From an uncultured Gammaproteobacteria bacterium (lineage in GTDB: Bacteria > Patescibacteriota > Patescibacteriia > Magasanikbacterales > GWA2-37-8), in assembly GCA_964540825.1 (NCBI GenBank), contig CAZINT010000001.1, positions 69,315-133,314 of the forward strand: a stretch of DNA of 64,000 bases, in the 5' to 3' direction. The translations under genes and the position numbers were made by a program. This document shows positions 19,332 through 63,000 of the stretch, one piece after another. The notes below the pieces were generated by a model. That model was not told where the DNA came from. It did not search any database and worked only from the letters and a program-made list of their open reading frames with translations. Each line of letters opens with the position of its first letter. Within the stretch, counting starts at the first letter, position 1.

Positions 19332-19404
19332 TGCGCCCAGATGGAATTGAACCATCGACATCCACCTTATAAGGGTGGCGCTCTAACCCCTGAGCTATGG
19401 GCGC
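19332..19404 (-). tRNA. tRNA-Ile with anticodon UAU (reads AUA); CCA not encoded
   Basis: Manual fold. Acceptor GCGCCCA/UGGGCGC, D-stem GCUC/GAGC, anticodon stem CCACC/GGUGG with loop CUUAUAA, T-stem GAUGG/CCAUC with loop UUCAAUU, discriminator A. Confidence 0.8.
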
Positions 19405-54043: not shown

Positions 54044-54130
54044 GCCCAGGTGGCGAAATTGGTAGACGCACTACCTTGAGGTGGTAGCTCCCGCAAGGGA
54101 ATGGAAGTTCGAGTCTTCTCCTGGGCACCA
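54044..54130 (+). tRNA. tRNA-Leu (anticodon GAG), class II with a long variable arm; CCA encoded
   Basis: Manual fold. Acceptor GCCCAGG/CCUGGGC, anticodon stem CUACC/GGUAG with loop UUGAGGU, long variable arm CUCCCGCAAGGG, T-loop UUCGAGU, 3' ACCA. Followed by terminator AAAAAACAGAAATACGAGTATTTCTGTTTTTT (54130-54161). Confidence 0.85.
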
Positions 54131-54168
54131 AAAAACAGAAATACGAGTATTTCTGTTTTTTAATATTA

Positions 54169-54197
54169 TTGACAAATAAGCCTTTATTAAGTAGAAT
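54169..54197 (+). promoter_or_regulatory. consensus promoter TTGACA-N17-TAGAAT driving the GC-rich island gene downstream of tRNA-Leu
   Basis: Read directly. Confidence 0.55.
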
Positions 54198-54276
54198 TTT
54201 GTATTCTTTGTAGTTCAGTCGGTAAAAGTAAACACGCTTTGTTTATTGCTACCGCCTGAATACGGAGAACAGCGTC

Positions 54277-54549
54277 ATGCAAAACCCCAGATCGCAGCGT
54301 TTGCGTGCAGCCTTGTTGATTGGCGTGTGTCTTTTCTGCGGCTGCCCAAACAAGGGTGTGGTTCAGCCAACGAGCGGCTCAGCCGTCGTTGCTCAGCCTC
54401 AGCACCAGCCGGATTTGGCGCCGGCCAGCCCTGACCTCACCGGGATTCCCTGGGCCAAGCAGCCTCACCCGATCAAGGTCAGTCCCGGAGAGCCTGATCC
54501 GGGTGCGTTTGAGCCTGCTTACGATACCGAGGAGAACAATCAGGAATGA
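54277..54549 (+). CDS. small GC-rich secreted/lipoprotein-like protein (island gene E), Pro-rich, function unknown
   Basis: GGAG RBS. N-terminal hydrophobic segment with Cys cluster LLIGVCLFCGC. Followed by the CAGCGAAGCGT...ACGCTTCGCTG inverted repeat and an ACTACTT/AAGTAGT + T6 terminator (54607-54631). Confidence 0.5.
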   Translation: MQNPRSQRLRAALLIGVCLFCGCPNKGVVQPTSGSAVVAQPQHQPDLAPASPDLTGIPWAKQPHPIKVSPGEPDPGAFEPAYDTEENNQE

Positions 54550-54690
54550 AAATCTACCAGCGAAGCGTAGGACTTCTGTGTCCACGCTTCGCTGCTGCCC
54601 CCCTCGACTACTTGCTGAAAGTAGTTTTTTACTTTTAAAAAATCATTTTTTTAAGTATACTATAGAAGACAGGTATTATTTATAAAAGCT

Positions 54691-56374: not shown

Positions 56375-56956
56375 ATGAACTTTAAAAAAGAACGAACCTA
56401 CGCCATGATTAAGCCCGACGGTGTGCAAAAAGGCTTGATCGGTGAAATTATTCGTCGTTTTGAACAGCGCGATCTTAAAATCGTTGCTCTTGAAATGTTC
56501 CAGCCAACCCATGACCAAATCGACAACCATTATCCAAAAGAAGAAGCCTGGATCCGTCGCGTTGGCCAGAAGACCCTTGGAACCTACGAAAAATATGGTA
56601 TGGATGCTACGAAAGATTTTGGTACCAACGAAGACCTTGAAATCGGTAAACAAGTTCGCAGCTGGCTTGTAAGTTATATGACCTCCGCCCCACTTGTTCG
56701 CATGGTTGTGGAAGGCGTACATGCGGTAGATATGGTACGCAAGATTTGTGGAGCCACTATGCCATACCTCGCTGATATGGGTACGATCCGCGGAGATTAC
56801 TCTGCTGATTCACCGGCAATTGCCAACATTGAAAAACGTCCAGTTATGAACCTTATTCATGCATCCGAAACTCCGGCAGAAGCAGAGCATGAAATTAAGC
56901 ACTGGTTTGGCGGACGTGAAGATGTCATTTTTGACTACAAGCGCATTACTGACTAG
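56375..56956 (+). CDS. ndk: nucleoside diphosphate kinase (with internal insertions)
   Basis: ERTYAMIKPDGV N-terminus and NLIHASETPAEAEHEIKHWF active-site region. Confidence 0.8.
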   Translation: MNFKKERTYAMIKPDGVQKGLIGEIIRRFEQRDLKIVALEMFQPTHDQIDNHYPKEEAWIRRVGQKTLGTYEKYGMDATKDFGTNEDLEIGKQVRSWLVSYMTSAPLVRMVVEGVHAVDMVRKICGATMPYLADMGTIRGDYSADSPAIANIEKRPVMNLIHASETPAEAEHEIKHWFGGREDVIFDYKRITD

Positions 56957-56968
56957 TCTCTGGTACTT

Positions 56969-56997
56969 AAAAAATCCGCTCAAGCAGCGGATTTTTT
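56969..56997 (+). terminator. intrinsic terminator after ndk
   Basis: AAAAAATCCGCTCAAGCAGCGGATTTTTT. Confidence 0.8.
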
Positions 56998-57005
56998 GAT
57001 TTTAT

Positions 57006-57034
57006 TTGACAGTATTTTTCCACCCCTTTATACT
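57006..57034 (+). promoter_or_regulatory. orphan consensus promoter TTGACA-N17-TATACT with no protein gene downstream on this strand
   Basis: TTGACA at 57006-57011, TATACT at 57029-57034. Confidence 0.55.
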
Positions 57035-57040
57035 ACAAAA

Positions 57041-57232
57041 CAGATCGAGCGCTGAGGCGGCAAAAATGTTCTACAATACAAATTTTAGGTTTACTCATAT
57101 TGCTTAGACCTGAGGGTCTTTGCTGCGGTTTACCACTTACTTTGACGGAACACGTCAAACCGCTTTGGTTAGCCGATCGATAACAAGTAACTCCTTTTCG
57201 CCCCCTTGGCGCTCTGGGGTTATTTTTTTGTG
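57041..57232 (+). ncRNA. candidate small structured RNA (~190 nt) of unknown class
   Basis: Begins ~7 nt after the orphan promoter. Contains nested stems (AGACC/GGUCU, GCGGUUU/AAACCGC enclosing GACG/CGUC). Ends with a GC stem plus U7 (CCCC...GGGGTTATTTTTTT). No similarity to tRNA, tmRNA, RNase P or SRP consensus motifs was recognised. Confidence 0.3.
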
Positions 57233-57235
57233 AAG

Positions 57236-57318
57236 CAGATTAAGCAGGGTAGGCAGAGTAGGCAAATTAAGTAGAAATTCGCTACTTAATCTGCTTAGTA
57301 CTTACTCTGCCTACTCTG
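57236..57318. repeat. inverted arrays of a 9-bp unit: four direct copies CAGATTAAG/CAGGGTAGG/CAGAGTAGG/CAAATTAAG, a 10-bp centre, then four inverted copies (CTTAATCTG, CTTAGTA partial, CTTACTCTG, CCTACTCTG)
   Basis: Read directly. Could form a ~38-bp imperfect RNA stem or serve as a protein-binding array. Confidence 0.6.
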
Positions 57319-57346
57319 CTTTTAAATAAGTCATTTTTGGTTTAAA

Positions 57347-57375
57347 TAAAAAACTACTCTGTTGCGAGTAGTTTT
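57347..57375. terminator. bidirectional intrinsic terminator (also serves rpmB on the minus strand), built from the same ACTACTCTG-like motif
   Basis: AAAAAACTACTCTGTTGCGAGTAGTTTTT. Confidence 0.8.
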
Positions 57376-57389
57376 TCGGAAGATATGGT

Positions 57390-57566
57390 TTATACCGTAG
57401 CTTTGGTAATGGTACGGCGGCAGGTGGAGCAAGCCTTCAAACGGTCACCGGCAACAGAGAGGAGTTGGAGGTTTGGTTTTTGACGGCGAGGAACCTTCTG
57501 GTTCGAGTGGCTAACGTGGTTGGCGCGGACAGCCTTTTTTCCGCAGAGTTCACAGGAACGGCTCAT
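57390..57566 (-). CDS. rpmB: 50S ribosomal protein L28 (58 aa; below the ORF-track length cutoff)
   Basis: Hand translation MSRSCELCGKKAVRANHVSHSNQKVPRRQKPNLQLLSVAGDRLKACSTCRRTITKATV shows the L28 N-terminal motif and Cys pairs. Consensus promoter TTGACA-N17-TATACT at 57621-57649 (minus strand). Confidence 0.8.
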   Translation of the reverse strand: MSRSCELCGKKAVRANHVSHSNQKVPRRQKPNLQLLSVAGDRLKACSTCRRTITKATV

Positions 57567-57653
57567 ATTGATACCTTAAAGAAAATTGAGTATACTTAGC
57601 TAATAGATTGAAGTAGGACTAGTATAGCTAAACTACATTAAATTGTCAATACT

Positions 57654-58274
57654 ATGGATTTTACCTCCCCGGAAGCCTTTATTTCGCTCTTGTTTTACTT
57701 CGTTATTATCATTCCTTCGAGCATTATTCATGAATATGCTCATGGGGCCATGGCTGATTACCTGGGTGACCCGACCGCACGGTATGCGGGGAGACTGACG
57801 GTTAACCCCAGGCCGCATATTGATCTCTGGGGTACTATTTTGCTGCCTGTTATTCTATTTCTCTCAACAGGCGGCAAATTTTTGTTTGCCTATGCTAAAC
57901 CCGTACCATATAACCCGTATAACTTAAAAAATCAAAAATGGGGTCCGGCTTTGGTGGGGCTCGCCGGTCCGGTTGCTAATTTTTTACTTGCTGCAGCTAC
58001 CGCCATTATCTTGCGCTTTGTGAGTACTTCTGCAATCGCGCCGTTTTTGGCAATTATCGTTTACGCCAATTTGATGCTCATGGTGTTTAATCTGGTGCCG
58101 CTGCCTCCTTTGGACGGTTCAAAAATTTTGTTTGCGATCTTGCCTGATTCCATGGTCGGTGTGCGGAATTTTTTGGAACGTTACGGCACCATTCTTGTTC
58201 TCGTTTTTGTTTTCTTTCTCTTTCAAATGCTTTCGCCAGTGATTGAATTTTTATTTACTCTGTTGGTTGGATAA
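57654..58274 (+). CDS. M50-family (site-2 protease-like) membrane metalloprotease
   Basis: HEYAH (HExxH) within a TM helix and the NLVPLPPLDG motif. Confidence 0.75.
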   Translation: MDFTSPEAFISLLFYFVIIIPSSIIHEYAHGAMADYLGDPTARYAGRLTVNPRPHIDLWGTILLPVILFLSTGGKFLFAYAKPVPYNPYNLKNQKWGPALVGLAGPVANFLLAAATAIILRFVSTSAIAPFLAIIVYANLMLMVFNLVPLPPLDGSKILFAILPDSMVGVRNFLERYGTILVLVFVFFLFQMLSPVIEFLFTLLVG

Positions 58275-62304: not shown

Positions 62305-62333
62305 TTGACAATTTTTAAAACTTTGGATATACT
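62305..62333 (+). promoter_or_regulatory. consensus promoter TTGACA-N17-TATACT for rplJ-rplL, divergent from and partly overlapping the CSD-gene promoter
   Basis: Read directly. Confidence 0.6.
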
Positions 62334-62339
62334 TTACTC

Positions 62340-62475
62340 ACCATAGACAGCAGGGCTCTTCAAGCGAAGGGTTAATCATCCTGCCGAGGTAATCTATTTG
62401 GCTAATTTTAGCCAATTCCGGTCGAGATTTACCTGTTTTTCAAGTCTGTGGATATCACAGATTTTTTTATTTGGT
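62340..62475 (+). promoter_or_regulatory. rplJ leader region with hairpins and an attenuator-like stem CTGTGGATATCACAG plus T7 directly before the start codon
   Basis: TTGGCTAATTTTAGCCAA hairpin (62395-62412) and CTGTGGATATCACAG (62446-62460) followed by a T-run. rplJ leaders are known autoregulatory targets of L10-L12. Confidence 0.5.
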
Positions 62476-63000
62476 ATGCCAAAATCAAAACAACAGAAAC
62501 ACAATGAAGTCGACGCCCTCCAGAAAGGCCTTGCTGCCGCTAAAGCAGTAGTATTTGCCAATTTTCAGGGTTTAACCGTCGCTCAAAGTGAAGAACTCCG
62601 CAAAAGTGCTCGCGCCGTTGGTGTTGACGTGTTTGCGGCCAAGAAGACGTTAGTCAAACGCGCACTCGAAGGAGCTGGTATCAAAGACATCGGTACTGAT
62701 GCCTTTCAGGGCGGCGTAGCAACGTTCCTGGCTACACAAGACGAAGTATCAGCTGCTAAGGTGGTCAATGACTTTGCTAAAACTCACGAGATTGTAACGA
62801 TCTTCGGTGGTGTATTAGAAAACAAATTCATTACTGCTGCCAGCGTTAAAAGTTTAGCCGCACTCCCAACCAAACAGCAATTACTTGGTCAACTCGTTGG
62901 TACGCTTAACGCTCCAGTTTCTGGATTCGTTAATGTCCTTGCAGGCAACCTTCGTAATTTGGTGGGCGTTTTGAACAATATCAAAAACGCTAAGGCCTAA
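62476..63000 (+). CDS. rplJ: 50S ribosomal protein L10
   Basis: MPKSKQQKHNEVDALQKG...FANFQGLTV. The ORF-track start at 62398 runs through the leader and is rejected. Confidence 0.9.
   Translation: MPKSKQQKHNEVDALQKGLAAAKAVVFANFQGLTVAQSEELRKSARAVGVDVFAAKKTLVKRALEGAGIKDIGTDAFQGGVATFLATQDEVSAAKVVNDFAKTHEIVTIFGGVLENKFITAASVKSLAALPTKQQLLGQLVGTLNAPVSGFVNVLAGNLRNLVGVLNNIKNAKA

Follow-up and report, generated by a model that had tools for sequence, protein, structure and literature searches.

The 433-bp spacer between the convergent genes ndk and rpmB houses an RNA gene and a hairpin built of tandem 9-mers in a 64,000-nucleotide (nt) stretch of a Magasanikbacterales genome (GCA_964540825.1, contig CAZINT010000001.1), called the window below. 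We read this interval, with fair probability, as two independent and unrelated features, a divergent 6S-like RNA gene and a gene-less hairpin of the intervening-sequence (IVS) type. The two are separate objects, because the closest relative (locus L003) carries a 98% identical RNA and an entirely different element at the hairpin site. An earlier note on the window had offered a novel small RNA (sRNA) with a long hairpin, an iteron-like protein-binding array or a remnant resembling a miniature inverted-repeat transposable element (MITE). A genuine structured non-coding RNA gene is indeed present, but the comparison with L003 detaches the hairpin from it and, judged from its sequence, the RNA represents no novel type of sRNA: in architecture and in signature motif, its family conforms to 6S RNA.

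The RNA gene, its fold and its family

The RNA gene (57006-57229) is a stand-alone unit with its own promoter, a defined 3' end and no dependent downstream open reading frame (ORF). Its features, all on the plus strand, are as follows (CM, covariance model; MFE, minimum free energy).

57006-57034, +: sigma-70-type promoter, TTGACA (57006-57011)-N17-TATACT (57029-57034), 11/12 match
57041-57229, +: predicted primary transcript of ~187 nt, with the promoter as guide to its 5' end and the U-tract as guide to its 3' end
57043-57178, +: putative divergent 6S-like RNA core, 136 nt (CM R2, 129.4 bits, E=2.7e-32)
57043-57060 with 57160-57178, +: closing stem, 17 bp with two bulges (RNAfold)
57067-57072 with 57147-57152, +: short helix UGUUCU:GGAACA at the bubble, equivalent of the 'downstream duplex'
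57073-57087, +: central bubble, 5' strand ACAAUACAAAUUUUA, 15 nt, unpaired in the consensus structure
57088-57134, +: apical stem-loop with a GGUUUACU/GGUUUACC helix, a UU/UU mismatch, an internal loop AUAUU / UGC and a hairpin with a UGAG loop
57135-57146, +: central bubble, 3' strand ACUUACUUUGAC, 12 nt, starting with the clade variant of CCCACCU
57141-57159, +: alternative 7-bp hairpin UUUGACG-GAACA-CGUCAAA of the unconstrained MFE structure
57066 (ATG) to 57107 (TAG), +: small ORF MFYNTNFRFTHIA, 13 codons, with GAGG at 57054-57057, 8 nt upstream
57185-57229, +: intrinsic terminator of the RNA gene, outer 10-bp stem 57185-57194/57216-57225, inner CGCC/GGCG stem, U7 at 57223-57229

The promoter on which the earlier note was founded is thus in place, and no coding gene follows it on its strand, as that note had stated: the next plus-strand ORF of any size is that of an M50 peptidase at 57654, which has its own promoter. 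The transcript is also as structured as had been predicted, since segment 57041-57235 folded with -61.4 kcal/mol compared to -45.7 +/- 3.9 kcal/mol for shuffled sequences (z = -4.05), none of the 200 shuffles being as good. The terminator, announced as a GC stem followed by seven U, was found with -16.8 kcal/mol (z = -3.65) and was recovered by a pattern scan as well; its U7 tract shares the last three paired bases of the stem.

The fold predicted by RNAfold and supported by covariation is a rod, in which the closing stem is followed by an internal loop, a 6-bp helix, a large central bubble and a short apical stem-loop. The motif UCUACAA (57070-57076), which marks the beginning of the 5' bubble strand, is invariant or nearly so in alignment A2. 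The alternative hairpin at 57141-57159 overlaps the UGUUCU:GGAACA helix, G57147 belonging to both and GAACA becoming a loop, and because of this overlap the two are unlikely to coexist; forcing the UGUUC:GAACA pairing costs 4.6 kcal/mol. An analogous hairpin occurs in L007, whereas in most other members a small hairpin (CCUR…YAGG) is already formed within the 3' bubble strand. The capacity to rearrange, with a helix at the bubble that excludes the 3'-bubble hairpin, is an energetic prediction for the window and L007, most members having the preformed hairpin instead. We also noticed that the 5' strand of the closing stem at 57047-57066 (GAGCGCUGAGGCGGCAAAAA) is complementary to the interior of the terminator of the same gene at 57195-57214 (UUUUCGCCCCCUUGGCGCUC), over 18 of 20 positions when counted by hand with G-U pairs included and at 80% in a repeat search. 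Such a pairing, present in L003 and absent from distant homologues with simple terminators, would rival both the closing stem and the terminator.

Homologues of the RNA were found downstream of ndk in relatives using blastn and nhmmer. A first covariance model (R1), made from the window and L003 with a structure set by hand, gathered 27 members, from which a second model (R2) was built. R2 was searched against 81 sources, namely the window and 80 ndk-linked loci (L003-L082), which are loci and not whole genomes. It matched 61 of them (the window and 60 of the 80 loci), with exactly one copy in each. The copy lies on the ndk strand in 59 of these 61 cases, being inverted in L009 and L056, and it begins less than 300 nt after the ndk stop codon in 37. 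This synteny with ndk extends across Magasanikbacteria, Paceibacteria/Nomurabacteria-type and other Patescibacteria genomes; in L027 and L036 tRNA genes come next after the RNA. Most close homologues have an equivalent TTGACA/TATAxT promoter 6-14 nt upstream. Over the whole family, a promoter-like site (>=9/12, within 20 nt) was detected for 33 of 61 members and a terminator-like site within 110 nt for 52 of 61. Most homologues have a simple terminator only, directly followed by the next gene. The core measures 110 to 165 nt across the family.

L003 differs from the window at three positions of the 136-nt core. Two of these changes form a compensatory pair, A66:U75 to G:C, and the third turns U•G into U-A, while the sequences just upstream of the promoter and just downstream of the terminator are unrelated in the two genomes. 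The MAFFT alignment, which was inconsistent in the closing stem, was replaced by a realignment to the model made from the window and L003; on the MAFFT alignment itself, RNAalifold had returned 15 apical pairs, 10 of them with compensatory changes. Standard pairs were found in 95.9% of the cells of alignment A4 (27 sequences) and 93.1% of those of A5 (61 sequences), with compensatory double changes at 32 of 36 and 36 of 36 pairs, respectively, and the covariation score was 0.79-0.81 as against at most 0.15 when the partners were slid by 1-3 columns, and none of 500 shuffles came up to the observed values; these figures are upper bounds, because A4 and A5 were fitted to the model and lean towards it. 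The closing stem, corresponding to helices 1-3 of A5, is 87-96% paired with compensatory changes at all of its 17 pairs. Helix 4 (A4/A5), the UGUUCU:GGAACA helix, shows them at six of six pairs and reads UAUUC:GGAUA in L019 and UAUCC:GGGUA in L027. The apical GGU:ACC of the window is GGG:CCC in other members and GGA:UCC in L036.

The same alignments bear on the 13-codon peptide that the earlier note had suggested. Both the ORF and the GAGG exist, but neither the start codon nor the length is conserved: the homologous position reads ATG, TTG, CTG, CTA, ATA or GTG, and the reading frame, which L009 and L019 already close after four codons, varies between 4 and 29 codons. A transcript serving as messenger for this 13-residue product, as a leader peptide or a micro-protein, could point to its ATG with a GAGG 8 nt upstream and to four initial codons (xFYN) that recur in homologues; the latter recur because they overlap the conserved UUCUACAA motif. 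Moreover, the Shine-Dalgarno-like GAGG and the ATG are both buried in covarying helices, and substitutions in A4 and A5 track base pairing rather than codon structure. We find a coding role hardly credible.

Relationship to 6S RNA

From its sequence and from structural modelling, the RNA is quite likely a miniaturised, highly divergent 6S RNA (SsrS-like). No Rfam family covers it at the gathering score, in the window or in 30 homologous loci. When relatives were scanned alone, 6S RNA (RF00013) came out as the top match of L027 (20.3 bits, E=0.021) and of L023 (19.2 bits, E=0.033, along the full-length model 1-187), and in L072 it was third-listed but had the lowest E (0.083, 17.5 bits). RF00013 was thus the best or third-best sub-threshold match in all three relatives examined this way. 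The earlier note had named a match to a known Rfam family as what would speak against its proposal; there was none for the window copy, and 6S emerged only below threshold, in these three relatives. The alignments of L027, L023 and L072 placed GGGAG…CACCCACCUG and both bubble strands on the 6S model, the counterpart of the window's 5' bubble strand aligning to the Rfam 5' bubble in L027 and L023. The invariant GGGAG and CACCCACCU of the family coincide with the GGG and CCCACCU that the Rfam consensus writes in uppercase, and in L027, L072 and L023 the family consensus …GGgag…cacCCACcUa… matches it column for column. In the window clade this GGG…CCCACCU signature is replaced by the compensated variant GGU…ACCACUUA, the latter motif lying at 57132-57139 where A5 reads ...cacCCACcUa.... 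The family therefore combines a rod with a central bubble, the signature at the junction of bubble and apical arm, and an independent single-copy gene, as 6S RNAs do.

Several observations weigh against this assignment. The window copy gave no 6S match in Rfam at E<=10, over 801 nt or over 150 nt, so that its own assignment is transitive, via the family. The best 6S scores (17-20 bits) lie below the RF00013 gathering score of 46.4, which was reached in none of the 30 loci nor in the window, and the matches of L027, L023 and L072 come from homologous sequences and are not independent. Reciprocally, R2 run with filters off had no match on Escherichia coli ssrS (L214, the one test case), its best score elsewhere being 7.7 bits. 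The core of 110-165 nt (136 nt in the window) is shorter than the ~185-200 nt typical of 6S RNA; its apical arm is short and may for this reason lack a -35-like element. Finally, for a 6S RNA the bubble sequences vary unusually little.

The low scores, the silence of the window copy and the failure of R2 on ssrS could also be expected of a new class specific to Patescibacteria, whose likeness to 6S would be convergent or coincidental: a protein-binding scaffold, or a trans-acting ligand sensor organised around a three-way junction or pseudoknot. Conservation of UCUACAA, AUAUU, UGCGG and CCACCU throughout the superphylum resembles that of an aptamer or protein-binding core, and since the stable hairpin of the window and of L007 has GAACA in its loop, UGUUC:GAACA could be a loop-to-junction pseudoknot. 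Set against this, covariation supports a rod-shaped fold that opens into a central bubble, promoter and terminator belong to the RNA gene itself, with no downstream gene to regulate, and the sub-threshold 6S matches of the three relatives fall on the most conserved positions of the model and on both bubble strands. Most members nest a hairpin in the 3' bubble as B. subtilis 6S-1 does (PMC8876501), with no pseudoknot. The three-way-junction or pseudoknot model was demoted to a rival because most members nest the GGAACA-type strand in a helix and because 6S emerged from Rfam, and we consider a new class unlikely. Two other known RNAs were compared by eye and set aside. GUUUACCA resembles the asymmetric loop of E. 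coli 4.5S signal recognition particle RNA, but motif order and strand do not fit, a GGAA tetraloop with AGCAGCC is missing and Rfam gave no match; CCCACCUG occurs in 5S rRNA, but again order and strand are wrong, CCGAAC and loop E are absent and Rfam gave no match.

6S RNA is a rod whose central bubble separates the closing arm from the apical one; the 5' bubble strand serves as template for a product RNA that unwinds the neighbouring helix, and a 3'-bubble hairpin forms afterwards in gamma-proteobacteria or is preformed in B. subtilis 6S-1 (PMC8876501). By analogy with this established biology, the RNA of the window would mimic an open promoter and sequester the sigma-70-type RNA polymerase holoenzyme. 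Upon nutrient upshift, the polymerase would template a short product RNA on the 5' bubble strand, predicted from the invariant UCUACAA to begin 5'-GUAGAACAU…, and its synthesis would unzip the UGUUCU:GGAACA helix. The freed 3' strand could then snap into the 57141-57159 hairpin, in parallel to the 3'-bubble hairpin of E. coli 6S, and the RNA would be released.

Compared to the 6S RNAs grouped in RF00013 (E. coli 6S, B. subtilis 6S-1), the RNA has in common a stand-alone gene with a strong promoter of its own, a rod fold, the GGG…CCCACCU signature where the bubble meets the apical arm, a short closing-side helix that product-RNA synthesis could unzip, and a predicted potential for a 3'-bubble hairpin, either preformed (6S-1 type) or formed by rearrangement (E. 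coli type). It differs in its size, with an apical arm of only ~17 bp, in the GGU:ACC that stands for GGG:CCC in the window clade, in the sub-threshold scores and bubble conservation noted above, and in its synteny with ndk, whereas the E. coli 6S gene accompanies that for 5-formyltetrahydrofolate cyclo-ligase.

Patescibacteria, or the candidate phyla radiation (CPR), have tiny genomes and few recognisable regulators. If the RNA is a 6S RNA, a global polymerase regulator would have been retained even in such minimal cells. R2 recovers one RNA gene per locus beside ndk in several CPR classes where Rfam 15 at its curated thresholds finds none; under this assignment it would correct a systematic annotation gap and be useful for CPR genome annotation, and the RNA would be a natural minimal 6S. 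A 6S-1 truncated to short arms completes the 6S cycle in vitro, which this natural truncation would parallel (PMC8876501). Our literature search returned nothing specific linking 6S RNA with CPR.

The tandem-unit hairpin and the IVP cassettes

Among the three options of the earlier note for the 83-bp element that follows the RNA gene, the MITE-like one is favoured. On sequence comparison, the best reading of the hairpin is that of an ORF-less derivative of an IVS-type cassette, non-autonomous and MITE-like or 'empty'. Its parts and the terminator beyond it are the following.

57235-57319, no strand assigned: ORF-less inverted-repeat element of tandem GCAGAKTAR units
57235-57270: left arm, four tandem 9-mers GCAGATTAA GCAGGGTAG GCAGAGTAG GCAAATTAA
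centre: GTAG / 7-nt loop / CTAC
57286-57294, 57302-57310, 57311-57319: right arm, full units in inverse orientation, with a truncated 7-nt unit at 57295-57301
57349-57376, primarily -: bidirectional terminator of rpmB, -14.4 kcal/mol (z=-8.4) on the minus and -12.1 kcal/mol (z=-5.9) on the plus strand

Four 9-mers mirrored by four inverted copies across a 10-bp centre had been described here; the left four stand, but on the right only three units are full and the remaining one counts 7 nt, and the centre is in fact GTAG and CTAC around a 7-nt loop. The hairpin begins 6 nt after the U-tract of the RNA and is followed by UUUU at 57320-57323. It folded with -46.1 kcal/mol on the plus strand (z = -8.6) and -43.0 kcal/mol on the minus strand (z = -7.9). 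The unit CAGRKTARG had eight matches in 64 kb compared to 2.24 expected, and six of the eight lie within 57236-57318. The closing terminator had been said to be built from the same motif. It is a real terminator, but it belongs primarily to rpmB and resembles the unit at 8 of 9 bases on one arm only, a likeness that is not conserved, since its L003 ortholog, at the same position, has the stem CCACTC/GAGTGG; the resemblance is probably coincidental. Weak Rfam matches in the spacer (SpF43 and microRNA precursors on the hairpin, others on the terminators) were dismissed as generic hairpin matches.

The same units were found elsewhere, at other metagenome loci and in cassettes described below. A scan of metagenome contigs with a 17-mer of two units returned ~120 loci, mostly single and probably chance or coding-repeat matches, of which only about 10 were true inverted arrays. 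Solo hairpins of these units occur at unrelated loci (L093, L112, L120, L133 with two copies, L150, L153 and L194), where they occupy 80-100-nt intergenic gaps, including one within an rfb-type operon. L112, where the hairpin is complete, and L152, where a one-armed array sits at the contig end, come from related bacteria, because they encode proteins 62-75% identical to proteins of the window. The same scan on viral sequences gave 11 further loci, including L210 with a multi-unit tandem array on one strand. Long one-stranded arrays of related 9-mers, e.g. CTTACTCTG / CTACTTTGA, were seen on metagenome and giant-virus contigs (L155:1800-2020, L094:8380-8600, L210:15-160); such arrays form no hairpin, and they may represent coding or satellite repeats that have nothing to do with the window element.

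The link to IVSs came from arms that bracket genes of the 23S_rRNA_IVP family (PF05635). In L159, arms ~380 bp apart enclose a 124-residue ORF of this family (E=2.7e-37), which is also bAvd-like and whose homologues are mostly annotated as Magasanikbacteria 'four helix bundle' or 'S23 ribosomal' proteins. Four further distinct loci (L215/216, L217/218, L219/220 and L221) have a PF05635 ORF between 3-4 GCAGAKTAR units and their downstream inverse, the arms of L219/220 being made of the variant GCAGAGTCA. In four of these five cassettes the ORF ends inside the first downstream unit or directly against it. Blocks identical between the window arms and the PF05635-flanking arms reach 24, 21 and 19 nt in L221, L159 and L215. 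As the arms are homologous to those bracketing PF05635 genes, the window element would be an ORF-less copy of the cassette stem. In other CPR lineages, IVP genes lie between inverted arrays of other units: the 8-mer ATTGTTAC in L037, with 7.5 and 2.5 copies (2437-2496 and 2892-2911), GCAGTAAG-type units in L224 (556-602 and 962-995) and ACTAAGT-type units in L223 (~525-560 and ~975-1005). L222 has a left arm only, L022 is truncated, and the IVP flanks of L050 and L059 are AT-rich and ambiguous. A stem of tandem units thus seems to be a general yet lineage-specific trait of IVP cassettes. A literature search on repeats flanking IVP genes returned nothing specific, and the tandem-unit arms appear undescribed.

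The related copies resemble rRNA IVSs that carry an ORF of this family (also 'S23p', a four-helix-bundle protein), in that the ORF is tightly bracketed by long, stem-forming inverted repeats. They differ in that their arms consist of 3-4 tandem 9-bp units, which we did not find described, and in that they lie, as does the window copy, between protein-coding genes and not in rRNA. The window copy further differs by its lack of an ORF: no PF05635 ORF lies between the arms, which are separated by only 7 nt (13 nt counting GTAG/CTAC). Since neither an ORF between the arms nor an IVP match in the window was found, we regard the element as an ORF-less derivative and not as an IVS proper; its site is the ndk–rpmB spacer, whereas that of an IVS is an rRNA gene. 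With MITEs and palindromic repeats such as REP/BIME, Correia/NEMIS, RUP and BOX the hairpin shares a size of ~85 bp, a palindromic and non-coding nature, an intergenic location that includes the inside of operons, presence or absence between close relatives, and contigs that break at it. Terminal inverted repeats, several dispersed copies and presence/absence polymorphism, by which MITEs are recognised, are all seen, with one copy in the 64-kb window. Unlike those repeats, it has no identified target-site duplication, its arms are internally tandem-repetitive, its copy number is low (one in 64 kb), and the 'autonomous' partner encodes an IVP protein instead of a recognised transposase or RAYT; no transposase was found as a cognate partner of the hairpin, the partner ORF being that of the IVP protein.

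Three features fit a mobile or unstable insert in a permissive gap, namely its absence in L003, the presence of other hairpins at the same spot in L003 and L015, and the contig ends of L001 and L004. L003 has a 125-nt inverted-repeat element of different sequence at the position of the hairpin (L003:3907-4031), whose terminal arms of 17 bp enclose a structured, GC-rich insert (-54.1 kcal/mol, z=-7.05). L015 has an unrelated, non-tandem hairpin there (L015:3787-3848), with a stem of ~28 bp. The stretch from the RNA gene to rpmB thus seems to be a hot spot for palindromic inserts. L001 (which ends at 1173) and L004 (at 3856) were assembled independently from one organism or from nearly identical ones, and both break inside or exactly before the 9-mer hairpin, as expected of a multi-copy or strain-variable repeat.

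An IVS-derived stem would have landed here in a neutral gap between two convergent terminators. rRNA IVSs are cut and excised by RNase III and are thought to spread horizontally; 23S_rRNA_IVP ORFs occur in CPR rRNA insertions, and their protein is uncharacterised (PMC11270868). If transcribed by read-through, the hairpin would give ~31 bp of double-stranded RNA, which by analogy with the rRNA IVSs RNase III would cleave, and which would keep the two convergent units insulated from each other.

Other observations argue against a mobile, IVS-derived origin. No second 9-mer array exists elsewhere in the 64-kb window, and tblastn with the L159 IVP protein found no IVP gene in it. No direct repeat is evident at the hairpin borders as a target-site duplication, nor could an empty insertion site be defined, L003 having another insert and the synteny of L112 ending. 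To our knowledge IVP is no transposase, which leaves the mechanism of mobility missing. Nor would simple recombination yield the loss of an ORF from between inverted repeats. Lastly, the hairpin may not be transcribed at all, because it lies between two terminators.

The position just behind the RNA gene raises the alternative that the hairpin belongs to the sRNA unit, as a second, very stable terminator or a 3' stabiliser that evolved in place. Its 6-nt distance from the U-tract, the UUUU that follows it and the long hairpins of different sequence at this spot in L003 and L015 would suit such a role. Yet its sequence is common to dispersed elements at unrelated loci, most homologues do without it, passing directly from a simple terminator to the next gene, and the upstream terminator is already good. 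We judge this very improbable.

The earlier note had put weight on the 9-bp periodicity as a sign of ordered protein binding. The arrays might in that case be a binding site on DNA (an iteron, an operator, a centromere-like site or an IVP recognition array) serving control of rpmB or of the RNA gene, or plasmid-like partition. The tandem phasing is strictly 9 bp in direct and inverted orientation, and the tight association with genes for a bAvd-like four-helix-bundle protein would supply a possible binder. The array is nevertheless absent from the closest relative in spite of the same flanking genes, and it sits downstream of both convergent genes, between two terminators and not at a promoter. 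No replication or partition gene lies nearby and no IVP gene is present in the window; other copies are found inside operons, in 80-90-nt gaps. Fixed 9-bp phasing is moreover not general, because sister arrays of other lineages use 8-bp and ~7-bp units. A DNA-binding array is in our opinion quite unlikely, though less so than a second terminator, and the ORF-less derivative of an IVS-type cassette is the reading that we retain.

Outside rRNA, inverted arrays of short units around IVP genes provide a candidate target, for binding or for processing, of the uncharacterised 23S_rRNA_IVP/bAvd-like family, and scattered ORF-less stems would explain some contig breaks in CPR assemblies. A bolder joint reading, possible at best and doubtful as a whole, would make tandem-unit inverted arrays with or without an IVP gene an undescribed, lineage-diversified mobile or RNA-processing cassette of Patescibacteria, in which the IVP protein would recognise the 7-9-nt units as DNA or as an RNA stem and gene-less hairpins would be non-autonomous derivatives; the RNA would found a lineage of miniaturised 6S RNAs, with a minimal architecture that suffices for polymerase capture in vivo. 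Were this cassette reading true, the long-uncharacterised IVP family would gain a function and a cognate nucleic-acid target.

Neighbouring genes and other features of the window

The spacer and its surroundings, together with the only above-threshold Rfam or ARAGORN features of the 64-kb window (an L10 leader and two tRNA genes), are listed here.

56375-56956, +: ndk (PF00334, E=5.5e-37)
56969-56997, +: intrinsic terminator of ndk, a perfect 12-bp inverted repeat and T-run that form the upstream boundary of the RNA gene
57390-57566, -: rpmB, ribosomal protein L28 (PF00830, E=6.8e-11)
from 57654, +: M50 peptidase gene, own promoter TTGATA-N17-TATACT at 57568-57596
62323-62478: L10 leader (Rfam, 56.6 bits)
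19332-19404: tRNA-Ile(TAT)
54044-54130: tRNA-Leu(GAG)

The ndk protein of the window is 98% identical to those of two metagenome-assembled genomes (L003 and L004) and 77-88% identical to those of many Candidatus Magasanikbacteria and Patescibacteria genomes, which places the window in a CPR bacterium. No rRNA was found in the 64-kb window in the Rfam scan at the gathering score, and a tRNA/tmRNA search found none at the RNA-gene locus. The 560 nt after tRNA-Leu (54131-54690) were considered as a further RNA gene and rejected, because they contain a promoter and a 90-residue lipoprotein-like ORF (54277-54549). In the 87-bp spacer between rpmB and the M50 gene, two near-consensus promoters stand back to back, TTGATA-N17-TATACT for M50 (57568-57596, +) and TTGACA-N17-TATACT for rpmB (57649-57621, -). 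Two more long inverted repeats occur in the window, at 2348-2433 (28-nt arms, 86%) and 2565-2621 (26-nt arms, 85%), both without 9-mer units.

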